DNA of 45,506 bases, taken from the IMG/VR virus record IMGVR_UViG_2563366923_000008, positions 1 through 45,506 of that record; one strand, given 5' to 3'. Below the pieces are notes generated by a model that made no database searches, was not told where the DNA came from, and saw only the letters and a program-made list of their open reading frames with translations. Below, piece by piece: positions 1-10,152 of the stretch; the stretch's first letter is position 1; every line of letters starts with the position of its first letter. Source of the DNA: a virus (Duplodnaviria; Heunggongvirae; Uroviricota; Caudoviricetes). The translations under genes were made by a program, and so were the position numbers.

Positions 1-1194
1 ATGATCACCGACACAAAGCTCAGGAAGGCGCTCGGCAAGAAAAGAGATGATATCGAGATTATTTCTGATTCGCACGGGCTCAACGCCAGAATCAGCCAGG
101 CCGGAAAAATATCATTTTTCTATCGGTATCGCTGGGCCGGTAAAGCGGTAAAACTCAATGTTGGTGATTATCCTGCAATGAGTATCACCCAGGCAAGAGA
201 GCGTCGCCAACAATTCAGAAACTGGTTAACTGAGGGACTGGATCCGCGAGAGCAGGTGAAGCTGGATAAGCAGACCCGACAGGAAGCGATGTCCGTTGCC
301 GAAGCGTTCAATTACTGGATTGAAAGGCACTGTATCGCTAACGGGCTAGTTAAAGTCGATTACTATCGCCAGGTGTTTGAGAAACATATCGCCGAACCGA
401 TGAAGAATGTCAAAGTCGATAACACAGCGAAAATGCACTGGATCAACGTCTTCGATTCTATAGAAAGCAGGGTGATGGCTCATTACATGCTTTCGCTGTG
501 CAAACGGGCGTTTAGGTTCTGCGTTAACAGAAGTGTGATCGCCTCAAACCCACTCGAGGGATTACTGCCATCTGATGTCGGGCAAAAGCCTAAAAAGAGA
601 ACTCGCAGGATGGACGATGACGATCTGCGCAAAATCTATCAGTGGTTGAAAAGCCATATGTCGATAGAGTCCGTTTTCCTGGTGAAATTTATTATGCTTA
701 CCGGATGCCGTACGGCTGAGATTCGACTTAGTGAGAGATCATGGTTTCGATTGGATGATAATGAGTGGGTCGTGCCTGCGGGCAGTTATAAAACTCGGGT
801 ACATATTAGAAGGGGACTCTCAGACGCCGCCGTTAACCTGGTCAGAAATCACCTCAAGAAAATAAACACCAATCACCTGGTGACTTCACAACGTAAAATT
901 GATGGCGGGATCAAAGATTCGCCCGTTCATTCACCTGTGGCATCCAATTACGCCCGTTCTATTTGGAATGGAACAGGTATGGCAGAGTGGTCGCTTCATG
1001 ATATGAGGCGGACGATAGCCACAAATCTCTCTGAGTTAGGTTGCCCGCCGCACGTAATTGAAAAGCTGCTCGGGCATCAGATGGTGGGGGTTATGGCGCA
1101 TTACAACCTTCATGACTATATCGATGATCAGAAACACTGGCTCCGCGTTTGGCAGAGCCATCTTGAAGAGATCATCGGAGAGCCCTTCAGTTAA
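1..1194 (+). CDS. int: Tyrosine integrase, P4-type (N-terminal arm-binding domain plus catalytic domain)
   Basis: 397 aa; N-terminus LTDTKLRKA...[24 protein letters not shown] typical of P4-family integrases; C-terminal LLGHQ...HY catalytic region; located at prophage end. Confidence 0.85.
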
Positions 1195-1388
1195 TTTATC
1201 TTCTTTTTATCCTCCCACTCTTTGATTGACTCAGAGCGCCAGCGGTTAGGGTTGCCGGGCCAGTCAGGGGGTGGGAACGGGCATACGAAGCCCCGAGGCA
1301 TTGTGTCTGCACTTTGCCATGACCAAAGGGTTTTGCGTGAAATTTTGTAGCGACTGGTCAGGTCTGACGTTACCAAAATATCATCCAT
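1191..1388 (-). CDS. AlpA/excisionase-like small DNA-binding protein
   Basis: Track ORF 1191..1433 begins at TTG; in-frame ATG at 1388 has a GGAGAG SD; product ...[12 protein letters not shown]...[11 protein letters not shown]...IKEWEDK fits AlpA/Xis pattern; overlaps int stop. Confidence 0.55.
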
Positions 1389-1429
1389 AGCTCTCTCCAG
1401 TTGCCCGTTCGGGCCATTCAAAATCTTTT

Positions 1430-1672
1430 TCAACCAACCTGCCCGGGCAGGGAGCGGAGACGGCGCATGCCGGTCATCGCTGTGGCCACGTAGCTCGCCT
1501 TTCGGTTCACCACCTCCACCCAGACTTTCACGCCTTCAACCTTCACCGTATAAGTCTCTTTCATCTTGCTTCGCCCATAGTCGCCATATGTTTGCAAGTG
1601 AGCTGCCAGCGCGATGTCGCATGCTTGGCGAGCTAAAGGTGATTGCTTACTTCCTCGATTGATCAGTCGCAT
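1430..1672 (-). CDS. Hypothetical small protein (early-left operon)
   Basis: 80 aa, ATG with AGGAG SD, start overlaps upstream gene stop pattern; no recognisable motif. Confidence 0.5.
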   Translation of the reverse strand: MRLINRGSKQSPLARQACDIALAAHLQTYGDYGRSKMKETYTVKVEGVKVWVEVVNRKASYVATAMTGMRRLRSLPGQVG

Positions 1673-1710
1673 ATAATCTCCTTGAGGGAGGGTTACCCCT
1701 CCCGGTCTCG

Positions 1711-2829
1711 TCAGGCCACGTATTCCGGTTTCATATCCGCCAGGGTGATGCTGAATTGATCGTGCAGTTCATCGCCTAAGTGACGCTTTGAAGATGCAAG
1801 CATGCGCTCGGCTTCAGCGAACCGTTCGGCTGCATGCGGCTCGTCGGGCTGGGGCAGGGATTTAATAGCCTCCTCAACCTTGTTGCGTGCATCCACTAGG
1901 TAATAACGCTTTACGGCTTTGTTTTTCAGCTCGGTGAATAGTGCGGATCCCAGCGTAGCTTTCGCCGTTTCAATGTCGGCACGCAGCGATTTGGCGCTAT
2001 CCACGTCCTGAGCAGATTCGATGCGTTCGCGGAAATCATCGGCAAGAGAGTCGACATTTACCGACGATTCCTGTGCGCTTTGCGTGGTTGTGACGGTGTC
2101 ACCTGAGATATCAGCCAGGCTAACGCGTTGCGGCGTTGGGTTGATCTCTTTTTCTGTGCGCTGTTCAATCTCATCAGGGGTGTACACACCAAGAACAACT
2201 GCAGGGCAATATAGGCGCGCCCAGTATTTGAGTGCCAGATAAGCGATCTGCTGTTTCGGGTTTGATACCCAAAGTGGAGAATTACGTGTGATTACGCTGG
2301 AGAGGAAAACAGGCTCTCCCCAGGTGATATCACTTTCACCGCGAATAACGGCACCTACCCGTACCGACAGTCCTTGTTCATCAGCACTTTCCCAACCGCG
2401 TACCATTTCTTTCTTGTCGTACGTCCCGCCACCTTTCGCAGGCTTTTTAACGGTTATCTCGCGGCTGCTGGCACATTTCGACCAGTCGCCCTCGTACTCA
2501 TAGTGAAAGCGGCCAACGATGGCGTTTGAGCTGGAGATCACCGCATTAACCAGTTGCGCTTCGTATCCCAGGACACCGTTAACCAGGTGCGTCTTTTGCG
2601 CCACGGCGTAAGGGTTCATACCCCACTGCATCGCCTGCATGATGATGGCCATGCAGTCTGCCGGATTGCCGCGGAGGTGCTCAGGCACCGTTACGGCTGC
2701 CTGTGCCATCAACCCGGCGACAGACTGAAGCTGGGTTAAAGCCTGCACGTTGAAAATGGCATTGCTGGCTGAGATCGTGTTTGGAGTCTGCTGTTCAGCG
2801 GTTACGATATTCGTGTTTTCCATCATCAT
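1711..2829 (-). CDS. Single-strand annealing protein, RecT/Red-beta family
   Basis: 372 aa; segment AIIMQAMQWGMNPYAVAQKTHLVNGVLGYEAQ resembles the lambda Bet/RecT core; immediately downstream of the RecE-like exonuclease on the same strand. Confidence 0.65.
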   Translation of the reverse strand: MMMENTNIVTAEQQTPNTISASNAIFNVQALTQLQSVAGLMAQAAVTVPEHLRGNPADCMAIIMQAMQWGMNPYAVAQKTHLVNGVLGYEAQLVNAVISSSNAIVGRFHYEYEGDWSKCASSREITVKKPAKGGGTYDKKEMVRGWESADEQGLSVRVGAVIRGESDITWGEPVFLSSVITRNSPLWVSNPKQQIAYLALKYWARLYCPAVVLGVYTPDEIEQRTEKEINPTPQRVSLADISGDTVTTTQSAQESSVNVDSLADDFRERIESAQDVDSAKSLRADIETAKATLGSALFTELKNKAVKRYYLVDARNKVEEAIKSLPQPDEPHAAERFAEAERMLASSKRHLGDELHDQFSITLADMKPEYVA

Positions 2830-2834
2830 TCCCC

Positions 2835-5800
2835 TTATGCCTGAGTACGCAGCGCTTCAAGGCGGCGCAGGTCGAAGTCGTTCAGTTCGTCGGTGTAGTC
2901 AGCAGTGATTGGCGCTGGCCATTCACCTGTGTCGAATCCGGTTGCGATATTGCGCATCGCTTTGCGGTACTCGAGCATACCCAGCTCCAGTAGTTCAGCG
3001 GATGCCTCGATGATGGCGATCCAGTGGTAGTTCTCGTCTTTGTTGACGAAAATCCAGAAGAACTGATCCAGCGCTGCGGTTTCGCAGTACATAGCCGCGC
3101 TCAGGTGATAATCACGTTCAATAATTTCCCGGTGTAGCCTGGCGCGCAGGCTTTCCTGCTTAACATTCCACATGCTGATGGTTTTCAGGTCTGCACCTAT
3201 ACGCACGCCATCCAGGTCGATCTCAAGGTCAGGGCGCACACGAACTTCCAAGCCCGTCTCCTCGTCAAAACCAAAGTAGCTCACCTCAACGGCTCGGCTA
3301 GGGTGGGTCAGCAGCATGCCGGCGGTCGGGTGTGCCAGAAGCGCTTTTTGAATATTCAGCGCGGTGCTCAGCTGCTGGCGGGTGACCAGCACTTTTCCTT
3401 CCGGGTTATCGCGCCAGGCATCCAGCAGTTCGTCGGCAAATACGGCATCTGGTTTGACTGCCTTCACGGCCTGGATCATGTCTGCTTTGGTACCGGACAC
3501 TTTCAGTGGTGCCGGTTTCTGTGCTTCCTGAGCCACAAGGTCAGGGTTGATGATTGCCAACTGCTCCAGCAGCGCGTCACGGCTGCCGCTGGTTTTAACC
3601 GGCGGCGGCAGGGTGGCGTTGTACTCTTTAATGCATGCCTTCATTGCCGTCGCCGTCTGCTTCTGGTCACCATCAATACGCTGGAAGTCAGCTGGCAGCG
3701 CCATATAGTTCTGTGCCGTTTCTTCCAGGTTAGCGCCAAGCGGAACCTGCGGCGGCAGGGTGGCGTTGTACTCTTCCAGTAACACCTTGATGTCGTCGGC
3801 AGACAGCAGCGCCGGCAGGCTGGCATTGTGCTCATCGATAAAGGCGCGCAGGGTCGCGGCCGTTGTGAATGCGCCTTCAGGGATCACCGGTTCAACGCTG
3901 AATTCTGCGTCCAGTAGTTCAGGCTGCAACGCCAGCGCATGCACCAAGTTGCCCATGTCCAGCACCGCTGAGCGCTCTTTGACGATGGTTTTCTCTACGT
4001 GGCGCGCATTGAAGTACATCAGCGAAACGCGCGCATCTTTCACCTGGGTTGAGCTGATGCCGTTGGCGGCGTGGTAAACCTCGTTTGGCAGCCCTTCATA
4101 GCGGCCTGGCTCGAAATAAGCGGGATAAACAACAGCTGGTTCGTCAGATTGCGCTTCTGGCTCGGTTTGTGCTGCAACTGGTTCGGTTTGGCTTACAGAA
4201 TCGCTATTTTTGGCGACAGAATCCGTATTCTGGTCTACATCGTCCTTCTGGCTGGTATCTGACTCTTCACCAGACTCCAGACTGCTTTCGCCTGGCTGTA
4301 CTTCATCACCAGCTTGTTTTTCATCACTGACAGTTTCTTGAACCTGCACATTGCTGGTGGTCTCCGTAGCCTTTTTCGTGCCATGAGTTGCTGAGTTCTG
4401 CAGCAAAGCCGTAACGTCGAATATTCCGTTGCCGACATTTTTAACCAGTTCTTGTTCGACTTTCTGCGGTTGTGCTGCCGCTTCCTCTGCGCGGCGGCGT
4501 GCTCCTTCTTCACGCACGCGTTGCAGGTTCTCTTCGTGAGTGCAGAAGGATTTGCGCGGAGACTCCTTACCTTCAGGTTGGGGAATTTCCTGTGCTGCGG
4601 GTTCAGTCTCATGCAACGGCAATAACTCGACCGCGGAATTGAACGCGGCTGTCATGGTCTGGTTAACAAATTCCAGGTGAGCGACAGGAGTTAAATGAAT
4701 ATTTTCCGGTGCGATACGTACCAGGTTAAAAATAGCCGTGCGGTTAACACCCAGAACGCCTGGCTGATTGCGCAGGATGTTGCTCCATGATTTCCATGGT
4801 TCTTCTTTTTTGGTCACGATTTCTTTAGCGCGACGAAGAATGCTGCCCGGGATCTCGAAGTGGTTGAAGTCCATAGGCAGAAGGGCACACGCAATCTCTA
4901 AATCGAGAGTGTCCAGTGTGTGGTGTGCGTCAGGTCCACGGTCAGTGACGTAACCGCCGTCGGCATTAGTGCCGGAATCAGTACGCTGCACACTACTGAT
5001 GCGATTACCGGCGGCCCATTCGCGAACGAGGATACCGCGGTCGATGTGATCTGTAGCGAACCACAATTTCAAAAACTGGATTAAGGTTGCGAGTTCAGGG
5101 ATTTTTCCATCGACAGGGAAGACTTTCTTAACGGCATTCACGACTTTATGAATATCGTGCTCAATGGCTTTTTTGAATGCTTCCACATTCTCAGCTGCCA
5201 GCAGCAGGTTCTGGACGTACGCGTCATCGGTGTCCATCTCAAGGCGGACAATCTCATTTTTCTGCCCTGCGTCGATGTGATAGAGATATTCACCATCACC
5301 GATGAACTGAGCCAGTACGCGCTGGCGGAATGGCAGGGTGGCAACAACGATCAGGTTCGGTTGCTGTGTCTGCTGGGATTGCTCTTCGGTATCGACTTCA
5401 CCATCAACGACGCCACCTTCTGCCCGGCCGTTCTCGTCGGTCTGGATACCGTCCTCAACAGTGAGATCTTGACCCGTTGTAACGTCAGCAGCGTTGCTGG
5501 TTTCAGTTTTGAGCAACTGCAACTTACCACTGCGCCAGTCTTCTACCAGTTGATTGCGGTCACCGGCATCGGTGTTCACCCAGTCAGACATGAATGCAGC
5601 GATCAATCTTGGTTCGTGCTCTTCGTCTGGTGTGAAAATGTCCTTAACCGCCCGAATCATTTTCCACTCAGCATTCAGGCTGAGTTTGGCGGTCGCGGGC
5701 ACATCGTTCCTTGCCACAAGCAGGCTATGGAGATATGTATTGCCTTCATCTAGTGACATTTCGCTGGCAGCCAACTGCTGCTCTTTAGTGACGTGGGTTT

Positions 5801-6224
5801 GGTATTTATCGTTCATCAGATGGACGGCAAAGCGGACCGCTGGAGTACGGTTTTCAACCGGGACAATTTCGGACGCAGTCGCATCTTCAACGATTACGGT
5901 CGGAGTAGGTGTGTAGGGGGCGTCAACGGAACCAGTAGACACACCAGCGGCTTTTGGCAGCCAGGTGCGCCCATCGTCCTGAAGCTCGTAGCGATCACAC
6001 CAGGTAAAATCAACTTCACCTTCTTTCGGCAGGCCGTCGACAACTGGGAAATCAGTGCGAATCGGTTTGGCGTAGTCCTTACCCCGACCTGTTTCGATAC
6101 CTGCATCTTCCAGCGCAACATCCAGCATCAGATTGGCGCGAGCCTCGGTTTTAGCAGTGAACCAGACCACTGCATCTTGCTTTCCGGATTTCTGAGTGGC
6201 TTTAACCACATTAAAGAATTCCAT
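2835..6224 (-). CDS. recE: Exodeoxyribonuclease VIII (RecE-like 5'-3' exonuclease)
   Basis: 1129 aa; N-terminal DFPVVDGLPKEGEVDFTWCDRYEL matches the RecE N-terminus from memory; long acidic linker; C-terminal nuclease domain; paired with the RecT-like gene. Confidence 0.7.
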   Translation of the reverse strand: MEFFNVVKATQKSGKQDAVVWFTAKTEARANLMLDVALEDAGIETGRGKDYAKPIRTDFPVVDGLPKEGEVDFTWCDRYELQDDGRTWLPKAAGVSTGSVDAPYTPTPTVIVEDATASEIVPVENRTPAVRFAVHLMNDKYQTHVTKEQQLAASEMSLDEGNTYLHSLLVARNDVPATAKLSLNAEWKMIRAVKDIFTPDEEHEPRLIAAFMSDWVNTDAGDRNQLVEDWRSGKLQLLKTETSNAADVTTGQDLTVEDGIQTDENGRAEGGVVDGEVDTEEQSQQTQQPNLIVVATLPFRQRVLAQFIGDGEYLYHIDAGQKNEIVRLEMDTDDAYVQNLLLAAENVEAFKKAIEHDIHKVVNAVKKVFPVDGKIPELATLIQFLKLWFATDHIDRGILVREWAAGNRISSVQRTDSGTNADGGYVTDRGPDAHHTLDTLDLEIACALLPMDFNHFEIPGSILRRAKEIVTKKEEPWKSWSNILRNQPGVLGVNRTAIFNLVRIAPENIHLTPVAHLEFVNQTMTAAFNSAVELLPLHETEPAAQEIPQPEGKESPRKSFCTHEENLQRVREEGARRRAEEAAAQPQKVEQELVKNVGNGIFDVTALLQNSATHGTKKATETTSNVQVQETVSDEKQAGDEVQPGESSLESGEESDTSQKDDVDQNTDSVAKNSDSVSQTEPVAAQTEPEAQSDEPAVVYPAYFEPGRYEGLPNEVYHAANGISSTQVKDARVSLMYFNARHVEKTIVKERSAVLDMGNLVHALALQPELLDAEFSVEPVIPEGAFTTAATLRAFIDEHNASLPALLSADDIKVLLEEYNATLPPQVPLGANLEETAQNYMALPADFQRIDGDQKQTATAMKACIKEYNATLPPPVKTSGSRDALLEQLAIINPDLVAQEAQKPAPLKVSGTKADMIQAVKAVKPDAVFADELLDAWRDNPEGKVLVTRQQLSTALNIQKALLAHPTAGMLLTHPSRAVEVSYFGFDEETGLEVRVRPDLEIDLDGVRIGADLKTISMWNVKQESLRARLHREIIERDYHLSAAMYCETAALDQFFWIFVNKDENYHWIAIIEASAELLELGMLEYRKAMRNIATGFDTGEWPAPITADYTDELNDFDLRRLEALRTQA

Positions 6225-7031: not shown

Positions 7032-7101
7032 AATACTCCTGGTATTATTTTATATCAATACCGCCAGTATTATTATGTTTAATAAAAATACTAAAGGTAT
7101 G
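7032..7101. promoter_or_regulatory. OL operator cluster (three sites, consensus AATAC-N5-GTATT) with the leftward PL promoter
   Basis: AATACtcctgGTATT (7032-7046), AATACcgccaGTATT (7057-7071), AATACtaaagGTATg (7087-7101); same palindrome as the OR sites next to cI. Confidence 0.6.
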
Positions 7102-7171: not shown

Positions 7172-7375
7172 ATGTCAAATGAGGATGAGTTTTTCGCAGA
7201 AATGCACCCGCAGATAGCGCAGGTCATCGGGATAGCGGTTATGCAACTGCTGGTTGAGAAGCGCGAGCCCTCAAGAGAGGCGCTGATAGAGATGATTCAG
7301 GTGTTGTGGCAGGAAGACCAGGTCGATCTGGCTGTGGAGTTGGCGCTGGACGTGCTGATGCTGAGGGAAGAGTAG
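7172..7375 (+). CDS. Small acidic helical protein (67 aa), function unknown
   Basis: ATG with AAAGGGG SD; AT-rich promoter-like region overlapping OL upstream; MSNEDEFFAEMHPQ...ELALDVLMLREE is strongly acidic; convergent with the cI-downstream cassette. Confidence 0.55.
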   Translation: MSNEDEFFAEMHPQIAQVIGIAVMQLLVEKREPSREALIEMIQVLWQEDQVDLAVELALDVLMLREE

Positions 7376-7379
7376 GGCA

Positions 7380-7403
7380 GTAAAAACCCGGCGCGGTGGC
7401 CGG
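7380..7403 (-). terminator. Rho-independent terminator ending the cI-downstream cassette
   Basis: Hairpin CCGGC-gcggtg-GCCGG (7388-7403 on plus) followed on the minus strand by GUUUUUA; lies between the convergent genes ending at 7375 and 7412. Confidence 0.4.
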
Positions 7404-7411
7404 ATCAAAAG

Positions 7412-8293
7412 TTATGCTGCAGTTTGCAATATTAACCTTGCTGCATGCTCGGCAGTGCTTACAGAAGTGATTGATACATCGTAGGTGTTAGCCAAGTCCT
7501 GTAAAGAAAGGTACGCACTATTTATTGATGCTATGTGCCTATCATTGTATGCAGGGCTATCATCTTCCGGTTTGTAGATAATCATTTGATGAGTTTCTCT
7601 TGGAAAAATATCGCCTTGCCTTTTTATCATTGATAAGTCAGATATTTTTGCTTTTCCATCCTTAACCTGCTCATTCAAGTTGTGGGGTAACAGTTTTCCG
7701 GTGTTGATAGCTGCATGATCGCTTAGATAGAAAATTTTAGCCGGTCTGTGTCCATCACTAAAGGTGAAGCTTCTATTGAAAAAAATATCCCTGCGTCCGT
7801 CAGCGCTGATAACCGCATCAAAGATTTGAATTGGCCACCTGTCTTTAGTTCTTGATTGCTTAGCTGGCAACCCATCGGAATCTTCTTCAGCCTCAAGGAG
7901 TGATGACAAACTCGATGACAATGATACCGCTTGGCGGAGTATGCCAACAGGGCTTGATGACGCAGCATTCCTTACGGCGCTTATAGTGACGCCTGTAACT
8001 GGAGGATGCCATGATACGAAATCCCCCTTAGCAGCCAGATGCAACTTCAAACTCGACAAAATCAGATCAACCACATTGATAAATGCTGGTGCTTTGAAGC
8101 CATACATAGCTTCTATAACTTCTTTTCTGATTGCCGGCTTAACTAAAATTTCACCAGATGATGTTATCGTGGCAACTGCTACCGTGAGCCGCTCTCCTGA
8201 GCCGATCATTGGTTCAAGATAAACAGATGCCCAGCGCCCTGATGTTGCAGGCATAGCAGGAGCTGACTTAAGAAGCTGATCAAGATTTAGCAT
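7412..8293 (-). CDS. Hypothetical 293-aa protein, second gene of the cI-downstream cassette
   Basis: ATG start overlaps the upstream gene stop by 14 nt (translational coupling); AT-rich; no motif recognised. Confidence 0.7.
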   Translation of the reverse strand: MLNLDQLLKSAPAMPATSGRWASVYLEPMIGSGERLTVAVATITSSGEILVKPAIRKEVIEAMYGFKAPAFINVVDLILSSLKLHLAAKGDFVSWHPPVTGVTISAVRNAASSSPVGILRQAVSLSSSLSSLLEAEEDSDGLPAKQSRTKDRWPIQIFDAVISADGRRDIFFNRSFTFSDGHRPAKIFYLSDHAAINTGKLLPHNLNEQVKDGKAKISDLSMIKRQGDIFPRETHQMIIYKPEDDSPAYNDRHIASINSAYLSLQDLANTYDVSITSVSTAEHAARLILQTAA

Positions 8294-9044
8294 CGTATAT
8301 CATCTGTGTTTGTTGGGGCTTGATTTGATCATAAAGAATGTCTCCTAGTAACTCAATTCTAGATGAAAGGAAAGACATTATTTGATTTTTCTCTTTACCT
8401 TGAACTGTTTCGGATATCTCTCCATCTAATAGCGTTAGGGTGTTACTCTTGCAAGACATGGTCCAAGCTCTCGCCTCATTTGCCATCATCTGAACGGCTA
8501 TATCATTACTTCTATCGAGTATGTAAGTTGCTACCTGCAGCAATTGATTGGAGTAATAATCTATCCCGAAAAGGTCAGGGGCAAGACCTTGGGGAATTGC
8601 CGATTCATGGTCTATCAGGAAGAAACCATCACCATTGAAAAGCAAATTTCCGTTGTGACGGTCATCCATCGCAATCCACTCATCAAAATAGCTAGCTTTT
8701 TTCAATAACGGCCATGATGCCAAAGCATCAGAAACGGCCTGATCTGAAGAGTTAGAAACATACTTCATGAAACTCGGATAGGTAGCATCAACACTACCAA
8801 AAAATGCTTTGTTTGAGCTGTCAAACAGTAGTACTGGCTCGGGTATAGGCAGGGATAGAGCTCTTCCCAAGGCTGCGCAGGTTATTTCTATAGAAATGCT
8901 CCTAGAAGATATTTCTTTTGCAAAAACAACAATCTCTTCTGGTTCGCTATTTTCTTTTATCAAAAGAGCAACGCCCTTTATCGGGTGATGTTGCCCTTCG
9001 TCAATTGCAATGCCGCCAGGTAGTAACCTTCCTATTCTGATCAC
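8280..9044 (-). CDS. HipA-like (PI3/4-kinase-fold) putative Ser/Thr kinase core, 254 aa
   Basis: GTG start with AGAGG SD 7 nt upstream; motif WIAMDDRHNGNLLF followed 8 aa later by FFLIDHESA resembles the HipA catalytic loop (D-x-H-x-x-N) plus downstream Asp; about 100 nt downstream of cI on the same strand. Confidence 0.6.
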   Translation of the reverse strand: MIRIGRLLPGGIAIDEGQHHPIKGVALLIKENSEPEEIVVFAKEISSRSISIEITCAALGRALSLPIPEPVLLFDSSNKAFFGSVDATYPSFMKYVSNSSDQAVSDALASWPLLKKASYFDEWIAMDDRHNGNLLFNGDGFFLIDHESAIPQGLAPDLFGIDYYSNQLLQVATYILDRSNDIAVQMMANEARAWTMSCKSNTLTLLDGEISETVQGKEKNQIMSFLSSRIELLGDILYDQIKPQQTQMIYDAKS

Positions 9045-9145
9045 ATTTAAGCCTCTAAGTTATTGCTATCTTCTCATCACCCAAACACCTTGTCAGTCCA
9101 CTACCGACTACCCATGCTTCCTGTACGTCCGCGGCATGCTGCTGA

Positions 9146-9856
9146 TCACACAAGTCTCAACTTAGTTTCTACAGCCACACCAATGATCCGGCAATTCCCA
9201 TTGATGGGAACCAATGGCCATTGAGGGTTTAAGCCCTTCAGGTACTTCTGGCCCCCATCAATAATCAGCTTTTTGAATGTCGCTTCGTTTGATTCGGATA
9301 GCTTTGCGATCACAAGGCTGCCATTTACTGGCTCTCGGCCGGTATCAAACAAAACGTAGGTACCCTCTGGTATGCTGAGCCCGACCGGGGCAGTCATGGA
9401 TTCCCCCTCGACCAACAACCAGAACGCATCCCCCTGGATGTGAGCGTCTGATTCTAGCCATAGATCGATATCTTTAAGTGCATACGGCTCGCACGCTTCC
9501 GACCAATGCCCAGCCTGAATCTTGCTTAATACAGGGTATTTAATGCCTGGGGTGTACTGGCCTGCATACTTGGCATTCGATGTAGCGGAAGCACTCATTG
9601 CAGATATTTCTTTCGCAAGGCTGGGGCTAAAATCAGAGACATCCACCTGGAGGGCTCTGGCAAAAACAGCAGCCACGGCAGCATTAAGGGCATTCCTGCC
9701 ATTCAAGTAATGCCCAACGCCCCCCTGAGATATGTCTAGCATGTCAGCTATTGATTGCTGTGTTATCCCAAGCTCTTTTTTCTTGGCTTCATAGAGGGCT
9801 TTCAGCCTTTCTGCGTCAGCGATCTGAGCCGATGTCAGTGTCTTTTTCTTTTCCAT
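9146..9856 (-). CDS. cI: CI repressor (Cro/C1 HTH plus LexA-like S24 autopeptidase domain)
   Basis: Near-colinear with lambda CI from memory (LKALYEAKKKELG...SMTAP...FKKLI...LNPQWP...); ATG at 9856 has no SD, consistent with a leaderless PRM transcript; track start at 9862 is TTG. Confidence 0.9.
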   Translation of the reverse strand: MEKKKTLTSAQIADAERLKALYEAKKKELGITQQSIADMLDISQGGVGHYLNGRNALNAAVAAVFARALQVDVSDFSPSLAKEISAMSASATSNAKYAGQYTPGIKYPVLSKIQAGHWSEACEPYALKDIDLWLESDAHIQGDAFWLLVEGESMTAPVGLSIPEGTYVLFDTGREPVNGSLVIAKLSESNEATFKKLIIDGGQKYLKGLNPQWPLVPINGNCRIIGVAVETKLRLV

Positions 9857-9890
9857 TTTCAAATAGTAATACCAATGTTCTTATTTTAAA

Positions 9891-9929
9891 AATACTCGCG
9901 GTATTGCAATGTTTAATACTTGTGGTATT
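9891..9929. promoter_or_regulatory. OR operators (two clear sites) with divergent PRM/PR
   Basis: AATACtcgcgGTATT (9891-9905) and AATACttgtgGTATT (9915-9929) between cI and cro; a third degenerate site may lie at about 9868-9885. Confidence 0.65.
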
Positions 9930-9960: not shown

Positions 9961-10152
9961 ATGAAAATTTCTTTAGCTGAATACGTTGACGAAGTTGGAC
10001 AGGCAAGAGCTGCTGATGCCATCGGCGTTCACCAGACCGCAATTAGTAAAGCTATCCGGGTAGGGCGGAAGATTTTCGTTAACACCCTGCCTGATGGAAA
10101 AATTAAGGCTGAGGAGATCAAGCCTTTCCCACATAACAGAAATCCTGATTAA
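9961..10152 (+). CDS. cro: Cro repressor
   Basis: 63 aa, AGGAG SD; MKISLAEYVDEVGQARAADAIGVHQTAISKAIRVGRKIFVNTLPDGKIKAEEIKPFP resembles lambda Cro; track ORF 9751..10152 is an upstream extension artefact. Confidence 0.85.
   Translation: MKISLAEYVDEVGQARAADAIGVHQTAISKAIRVGRKIFVNTLPDGKIKAEEIKPFPHNRNPD

Follow-up and report, generated by a model that had tools for sequence, protein, structure and literature searches.

The immunity region of a lambdoid prophage (tailed phages, Caudoviricetes; IMG/VR record IMGVR_UViG_2563366923_000008, all 45,506 nucleotides (nt) of which were analyzed and are referred to here as the window) carries a cassette of two genes, A and B, which sequence comparison showed to be a sister form of the anti-phage system HipAD, equipped with a different partner protein. 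HipAD corresponds to the PADLOC candidate PDC-M66, which consists of a HipA-like kinase and a DUF3037 protein; as it was validated in 2025-2026, the kind of system is already known, and the partner is the real point of difference. Protein A is a HipA_2-family serine/threonine protein kinase core, predicted from its sequence and structural model to be catalytically competent, and B is its obligate, co-evolving and translationally coupled partner. By analogy with HipAD, the cassette is probably a lysogen-expressed accessory module, or "moron", in which a kinase toxin and its partner act against phages by abortive infection or exclusion. The two genes, as read directly from the open reading frames (ORFs), are the following:

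9044..8280, minus strand: gene A, GTG start, 254 amino acids (aa)
8293..7412, minus strand: gene B, ATG start, 293 aa

The genes overlap by 14 nt, the distance at which the ATG of B precedes the stop codon (TGA) of A, and direct reading also showed a GAGG Shine-Dalgarno sequence 7 nt ahead of the GTG of A. Both ORFs, their starts and the overlap are exactly those given in a preliminary description of this DNA, which had been made from the sequence alone, and the same two coding sequences are present, named "hypothetical protein", in the RefSeq annotation of a 100% identical Escherichia coli prophage.

Pairing of the kinase and its partner

The association between A and B was evaluated in a genomic set of 43 loci (Gamma- and Betaproteobacteria, and one metagenome-assembled genome of Verrucomicrobiota) to which additional individual loci were added, giving n = 54 for pairing. 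A B-family gene directly followed the kinase on the same strand at 53 of these 54 loci, overlap being usual. Among viral contigs from IMG/VR, 84 encoded a relative of A; B adjoined it in 76 of the 77 contigs with room downstream, and a DUF3037 gene was found in none of them. The identity matrices of A and B were strongly correlated (r = 0.87, a value that partly reflects shared ancestry and that 0 of 2,000 Mantel permutations reached), indicating that both proteins are inherited together.

Protein A, a HipA_2-family kinase

The match of protein A to the Pfam family HipA_2 (PF20613) was marginal; it scored 25.5 bits (E 9.6e-6; gathering score 27) and spanned profile positions 27-157 of 240. The protein cluster identical to A (P0001) has a precomputed PF20613.5 match, as do most of its homologues, and a large protein search with A retrieved 78 clusters, mostly with precomputed PF20613 matches and several of them named "HipA family kinase" by NCBI. 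The PADLOC model PDC-M66A matched A with an E value of 2.1e-6 and was matched by all 42 members of the A family (best E 3.2e-14), while searches of A and B against NCBIfam returned nothing meaningful. The residues expected of a kinase active site were recognized in the family alignment:

Protein A, residues K43 and E53
Protein A, residues D128 and N133: catalytic residues
Protein A, residue D145, followed by H146: metal-binding Asp

In the alignment of 42 A sequences, K43, E53, D128, R129, N133, D145 and H146 were invariant. Across 44 non-redundant loci, E53, D121, E122, D128, R129, N133 and D145 were kept in all 44, and K43 in 43. The AlphaFold2 model of A was of high confidence (predicted local distance difference test 88.2; predicted TM-score 0.87), and its Foldseek matches comprised CtkA, HipA, HipT of Legionella, VPS34/PI3K, PI4K and RIO1, with E values from 1e-6 to 1e-4. 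A sequence profile search of the PDB gave a weak RIO1 match (E 0.17), which placed the DR-x3-N ... IDH segment of A on the RIO1 catalytic loop and its metal-binding Asp. The preliminary description had read this segment as a catalytic loop of the HipA/PI3-4-kinase type and had called for profile and structure searches with A; both the folds matched by the model and the marginal HipA_2 match bear out that call, and the proposed D128, N133 and D145 are among the residues kept at all 44 loci. Two details needed revision. The spacer between NLLF and FFLIDH, given there as 8 aa, is of 4 aa (NGDG), and the stated lack of a Gly-rich loop in A holds only in part, given that the family consensus has a G-x-G-x3-P element near the N-terminus.

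Protein B, the partner

Protein B matched no model of Pfam, NCBIfam or PADLOC, in agreement with the earlier impression of a partner without a recognized family; its only match was to phrog_21150, of unknown function. No mention of the RefSeq protein and PHROG identifiers of the cassette was found in the literature searched or in the DefensePredictor supplements. Among 27 close and 63 diverse relatives of B, none matched any of these models either, DUF3037, DUF1829 and PDC-M66B included, at E values of up to 10 or 1. The family is nevertheless large: at E <= 1e-3, an exhaustive search with hidden Markov models (HMMs) retrieved at least 791 sequences representing clusters at 50% identity, 628 of them at E <= 1e-10, and nearly all of the members listed were 280-300 aa long. 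Three parts were distinguished in the model of B:

Protein B, residues ~1-125: N-terminal domain
Protein B, residues 131-148: disordered linker
Protein B, residues ~150-293: C-terminal domain

The N-terminal domain bears the near-invariant motif E27-P28-x3-S32-G33-E34-R35, and all near-invariant residues of B (E27, P28, S32, G33 and E34) are located in this domain, with P28 and E34 present at 44 of 44 loci. Of the two domains of the model, one showed a restriction-endonuclease-like alpha/beta fold, which the order of its secondary-structure elements suggests is carried by residues ~150-293. Foldseek searches with B against viral models returned ERCC4 and endonuclease folds, as well as a "DUF1828 domain" phage protein (E 5e-4), and the top structural match was the central domain of ERCC1, which is a catalytically dead nuclease fold. 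The core strands of B were inspected for a D ... (D/E)-x-K site, and no acidic or lysine residue was conserved on them (position 192 is D, E, S or T, and K200 is not conserved); the C-terminal domain accordingly looks like a dead nuclease fold as well, and an active nuclease was ruled out by the lack of conserved catalytic residues. Sequence searches of the PDB with B and with broad B profiles gave only noise, with no match to any solved structure, HipS included.

Two further observations concern the B family. Faint matches of the B profile to RF2 in the PDB (E ~1.7) were located in its charged linker and seem to be noise. In one B-family protein (P0136, 307 aa, from a 1.5-kb ENA contig), the first ~90 residues are replaced by an ArfB/RF-1-like GGQ domain (GTGGQNVNK); this protein is probably a chimera of assembly or gene calling.

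Relation to HipAD

The evidence for an anti-phage role of HipAD comes from two sources. In the Retron-Sda1 operon, deletion of the HipA kinase abolishes defence against Bas51 and deletion of the DUF3037 gene is toxic, while the retron parts are dispensable (PMC12548924). The E. coli pair DS-6, validated through DefensePredictor and renamed HipAD (credited to Brenes & Laub 2025), protected MG1655 when cloned as a two-gene transcription unit, and defence was lost when the predicted catalytic residue of DS-6A was mutated (D139A in the strain table); a complex of both DS-6 proteins was predicted by AF3, with weaker DNA binding by DS-6B, in which residues 7-125 correspond to DUF3037 and residues 163-260 weakly to DUF1829 according to the authors' HHpred analysis (PMC13092281).

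Based on the DS-6 sequences from the supplement, DS-6 DNA was detected in 284 of 5,426 complete E. coli genomes, and the window cassette in 4 of the same 5,426. In strain H9Ecoli, the gene order is a cro-like regulator, an S24 repressor, a 122-nt gap, the HipA kinase, DUF3037, kil, gam, bet, exo ... int, so that HipAD occupies the same prophage slot as the cassette, directly after an S24 cI. Both systems further have in common similar protein sizes (~250 aa and ~280 aa), the kinase-then-partner order with overlapping genes (by 4 nt in HipAD and by 14 nt in the window), a two-domain partner, and the kinase motif FD-x-WI-x-N/M-x-DR ... LIDH. The A profile aligned by hhalign with DS-6A (97.7%) and with a nine-sequence profile of HipAD kinases (98.6%, E 5e-16) over the N-lobe and catalytic segment, and the best BLASTP match between kinases of the two kinds had an E value of 4e-12, with 35% identity over ~130 aa. 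The kinases differ, in turn, in their match to HipA_2, which is full-length in DS-6A (257.9 bits) and limited to the N-terminal half in A (25.5 bits). For all 162 kinases compared, the nearest neighbour had the same type of partner, indicating separate sister clades and no partner swaps; median HMM scores against the own and the other clade were 188 and 35 bits for B-paired kinases, and 298 and 36 bits for DUF3037-paired ones.

The partners are where the two systems part. Unlike the kinase and the gene order, B does not agree with what defines HipAD, that is, a partner with DUF3037/PDC-M66B and a DUF1829-like C-terminus. In positive controls, DS-6B and a partner from Shinella matched DUF3037 (85-92 bits) and PDC-M66B (57-67 bits), with 85 and 57 bits, respectively, for DS-6B. 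Cross-searches with HMMs of B and of the HipAD partner gave no matches, and their hhalign comparisons were not significant with DS-6B alone (E 0.27), with nine sequences (E 0.045) or with profiles of 201 and 56 sequences (E 0.12). Weak hints of a very remote kinship came from the agreement in length, two-domain layout and gene order and from two further observations. When the domains were compared separately, again without significance, the C-terminal pair reached an E value of 0.007 and the N-terminal pair 0.12, against 0.31 and 0.41 for the non-cognate pairs; and in the only local alignment obtained, an N-terminal beta-loop-beta was in register, P28-x3-S32-x-E34 of B facing P14-x3-T18-x-E20 of DUF3037, so that residues invariant in each family fell on each other. 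The chances that B is an extremely diverged HipD may be put at about even. It is possible, if rather doubtful, that B is instead an independent replacement, in which case HipA_2 kinases would be a modular core served by at least two unrelated families of sensors or neutralizers, each answering its own infection cue. Because the PDC-M66B model does not match B, PADLOC would presumably not report the cassette as PDC-M66.

The cassette in the immunity region

The surroundings of the cassette in the window comprise the following features:

9862..9146, minus strand: cI-type repressor, with HTH_3 and Peptidase_S24 by Pfam; the RefSeq start is two codons later, at 9856
9045..9145, minus strand: spacer between cI and A, 101 nt, with a GAGG ribosome-binding site
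7032..7101: operator OL, three palindromes AATAC-N5-GTATT (7032-7046, 7057-7071 and 7087-7101), at the left edge of the immunity region
9891..9929: operator OR, two exact palindromes (9891-9905 and 9915-9929), separating cI from cro, whose ATG is at 9961
7382..7403, minus strand: GC-rich hairpin (7403-7388) and T5 (7386-7382), 9 nt past the B stop codon; it could be the intrinsic terminator at which transcription of cI, A and B ends
7172..7375, plus strand: ORF of 67 aa located between OL and the cassette and convergent with B; it matches phrog_3946 (E 1e-39), a family of unknown function

The sequence AATAC-N5-GTATT occurred five times in the 45.5 kb, against 0.69 matches expected, all of them at OL or OR, and none of 100 shuffles reached this number. 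These palindromes place cI and the cassette inside the immunity region, where lambda has rexAB, and the location proposed in the preliminary description, about 100 nt after cI and between cI and OL, was precisely what the 101-nt gap and the operators indicated. The cassette had also been described as richer in AT than its flanks and of foreign composition, and its GC content was indeed 0.424 with respect to 0.516 in the rest of the window, the lowest among 439 windows of equal size.

A scan of the 101-nt spacer between cI and A yielded no terminator-like and no promoter-like match, which is consistent with read-through from the cI transcript and suggests that the cassette is co-transcribed with cI. 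As for the terminator attributed to the cassette in the preliminary description, the hairpin and the T5 are present, yet their signal is modest: the hairpin (-12.3 kcal/mol) was only moderately more stable than shuffled sequences (z -1.95, with 8 of 200 shuffles folding equally well), and a consensus terminator scan left positions 7382-7403 unflagged.

A sigma-70-like match (TTGAGT-17-TATGAT, 8356-8328, minus strand) is located within the 3' end of A, just 5' of B, and recalls the lambda promoter PLIT in rexA. It was discarded as an internal promoter, since promoter-like matches in the region were at chance level (7 vs. 7.0 expected). The 67-aa ORF probably lies outside the kinase module; its DNA is 84-97% conserved in a dozen Klebsiella prophages that do not have the cassette. 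At the start of the window there is a tyrosine integrase gene, and RecT and a 1,129-aa RecE-family exonuclease are encoded leftward of the immunity region (window 1-6224). In E. coli ECCRA-119, an identical prophage is integrated beside kch.

Recurrence of the slot in other phages and genomes

The order repressor, A, B recurred in many unrelated temperate phages; whether homologous pairs recur beside repressors in other prophages was a check that the preliminary description had proposed. In Alteromonas phage P24, a helix-turn-helix (HTH) gene is followed by an 8-nt gap and then by A and B; in Methylococcales prophages, the HTH gene shares 26 nt with the kinase gene and lies opposite a cro/YdaS-like gene; and in Pseudomonas syringae prophages, A and B come after an S24 cI. 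Morganella prophages (L010-L012) showed the order cI, DUF3024, A, B, N, in which the N-peptide-like antiterminator gene after B confirms the interval between cI and N as the slot. The DUF3024 gene between cI and the kinase in these prophages (5632-5973) encodes 113 aa and matched its family with 84 bits. Among the same-strand upstream neighbours of viral kinases, HTH_3 was present in 36 of 64 and S24 in 21 of 64, and BLAST comparison grouped 43 of the 64 into one cI/HTH cluster. At approximately 20 IMG/VR loci (e.g., L172, L196, L207 and L218; also L004/L005 at 4550-5026), an Xre/cI-type HTH gene overlaps the start of the kinase by 8-77 nt. These overlaps make up a three-gene translationally coupled unit resembling hipB-hipA. 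In bacterial genomes, HTH_3 was found upstream at 15 of 43 loci, the other neighbours being transposases or housekeeping genes.

Kinases 99-100% identical to A were found behind repressors sharing 17% identity, one of 238 aa separated by a 101-nt gap (L145) and the other of 229 aa separated by a 266-nt gap (L148/L149), which indicates that the cassette moved between immunity types as a unit. The identity of kinases was only weakly correlated with that of the upstream proteins (r 0.43, vs. 0.87 for B). Such an exchangeable repressor points to an association with the slot and not with a particular repressor. As a candidate for a dedicated HipB-like component, the repressor was ruled out by these near-identical cassettes behind unrelated repressors, and the earlier view that there is no HipB-like antitoxin, the adjacent HTH protein being an S24 cI, was upheld.

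The pair was also found next to other cargo. In a Methylocucumis oryzae prophage (L004, 6633-7974), B is followed by a 324-aa protein without a Pfam match and an overlapping DUF4325 (STAS-like) protein, which may represent a second cargo module in the slot. In Acinetobacter phage vB_AbaS_qsb1 (L003, 3619-5804), A and B come after an Arc-like repressor, and two such repressors in all lie next to the pair, together with a BRO protein. The cargo island that holds them, flanked by the genes for the tail assembly chaperone and the tape measure, is a hotspot distinct from the immunity region.

Proposed function and alternative explanations

The reading of the cassette as a defence candidate in the rexAB slot, put forward in the preliminary description, is strongly reinforced by the analogy with HipAD, a homologous system validated as anti-phage and located in the same slot. 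In the mechanism that we propose, transcription reading through from cI would supply A and B in the lysogen. A would act as the toxic effector, in analogy with HipAD, where defence needs the catalytic Asp of the kinase and deleting the partner gene is toxic, and B would bind and restrain A in the uninfected lysogen, again as supposed from HipAD. The N-terminal E-P-x3-S-G-E-R domain of B, together with the inactive nuclease-fold domain, would sense an infection cue and release A; the nuclease-fold domain is, by analogy, probably a DNA- or protein-binding module. By phosphorylating either a phage protein or some essential component of the host, the released A would then block phage production. 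Candidate host targets could be translation factors, as in the case of HipA on GltX and HipT on TrpS. Since no relationship between B and the HipAD partner was detected, its putative role as antitoxin or sensor is taken over from HipAD only by analogy of position and architecture. Given that B-type pairs are translationally coupled to repressor genes in many phages, a further, rather doubtful possibility is that they read the lysogenic state instead of working as free-standing toxin-antitoxin systems; loss or cleavage of the repressor, or superinfecting DNA bound by the nuclease-fold domain of B, could be examples of what would be read.

Several findings weigh against this interpretation. The HipA_2 match of A covers only the N-lobe and the catalytic loop, its C-terminal helical half being distinct, and B has no detectable kinship to the HipAD partner. 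The putative co-transcription with cI was deduced from the lack of terminator and promoter signals, and about a third or more of the genomic loci are without an adjacent repressor.

A plain toxin-antitoxin addiction module, by which the prophage would be kept through post-segregational killing with no anti-phage role, would account for the toxin-antitoxin-like architecture, the overlapping genes and the homology of the kinase to HipA-type toxins, and it agrees with the toxicity of partner deletion in the related HipAD and with the presence of the pair outside prophage immunity regions, beside transposases and housekeeping genes. We consider it unlikely, because the closest characterized relative was validated as anti-phage in a kinase-dependent manner, and because in many phages the pair persists in the repressor slot that is expressed in lysogens, the classic place of exclusion genes such as rexAB.

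The proximity to the repressor invites another explanation, namely that the maintenance or induction of lysogeny is tuned by A and B, which would modify the repressor, a different regulator of the phage or a nucleoid protein of the host. The 36 of 64 viral loci placed directly after a repressor and the approximately 20 at which its gene overlaps the kinase start fit such a role, and prophage kinases that control lysogeny are known (PMC11341870), the KKP kinase-phosphatase module of Pf prophages being of this kind. No specific partnership with a repressor was evident, however, either from the near-identical kinases behind repressors of 17% identity or from the correlations (r 0.43 vs. 0.87), and DS-6/HipAD protected MG1655 when cloned as its two-gene unit, so that control of lysogeny seems improbable. 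A further alternative, in which B would be a PD-(D/E)xK nuclease acting as effector and the kinase its sensor or regulator, is hardly credible, considering its unconserved catalytic positions, the dead nuclease fold that is its top structural match, the confinement of its near-invariant residues to the N-terminal domain, and the dependence of HipAD defence on the kinase catalytic residue with toxicity upon partner loss. An anti-phage module with A as toxin and B as its restraint remains the interpretation that we favour.

Comparison with known systems

With respect to other kinases, the best structural matches of the A model were CtkA of Helicobacter pylori and the PI3/PI4 and RIO kinases, but identities to these proteins were of 10-16%, TM-scores were ~0.45-0.52, and their contexts and partners are unrelated. 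HipBA and HipBST share with A the HipA-like kinase fold (Foldseek matches to HipA 3dnt/3tpv and HipT-Lp 7wcf). In contrast to HipBA, A has a Pfam match to HipA_2 only, and to none of the canonical HipA families, and at 254 aa it is without the N-subdomain 1 of HipA; the cassette has no dedicated HipB either, the upstream HTH protein being an exchangeable S24-type phage cI located 101 nt away. A resemblance in concept is found in the short Hip kinases with putative antitoxins encoded downstream, i.e., HipI-HipN, HipM-HipP and HipJ-HipS (Gerdes et al. 2021, PMC8262856), which, like the cassette, combine a core kinase and a downstream partner with a putative nucleic-acid-binding domain, and for which a role as trigger of abortive infection has been proposed (PMC8262856).

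Lambda RexAB is comparable in position and in the proposed role of excluding superinfecting phages. Like rexAB, the cassette has the orientation of cI, lies in the interval from cI to OL and is presumably co-expressed in the lysogen. The "rexAB slot" thus appears once more as a hotspot for immunity genes that are expressed in lysogens. The likeness does not extend to the proteins, which have no kinship in sequence or fold: RexAB is ion-channel-based, while the cassette encodes a kinase and a soluble partner, and neither A nor B had a Rex match in Pfam, NCBIfam or PADLOC.

It was not until 2025-2026 that anti-phage systems based on HipA_2-type kinases were validated. The cassette reveals a second, widespread branch of them, in which the partners form at least 791 clusters at 50% identity, distributed from enterobacteria to phages of marine Alteromonas and of methanotrophs. 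As neither Pfam nor PADLOC offers a model for the partner, this branch would escape tools that depend on such models. With a kinase core and a prophage slot in common and a partner that differs, the two branches offer a natural experiment from which to learn which component is the infection sensor and which part of the kinase determines its target.

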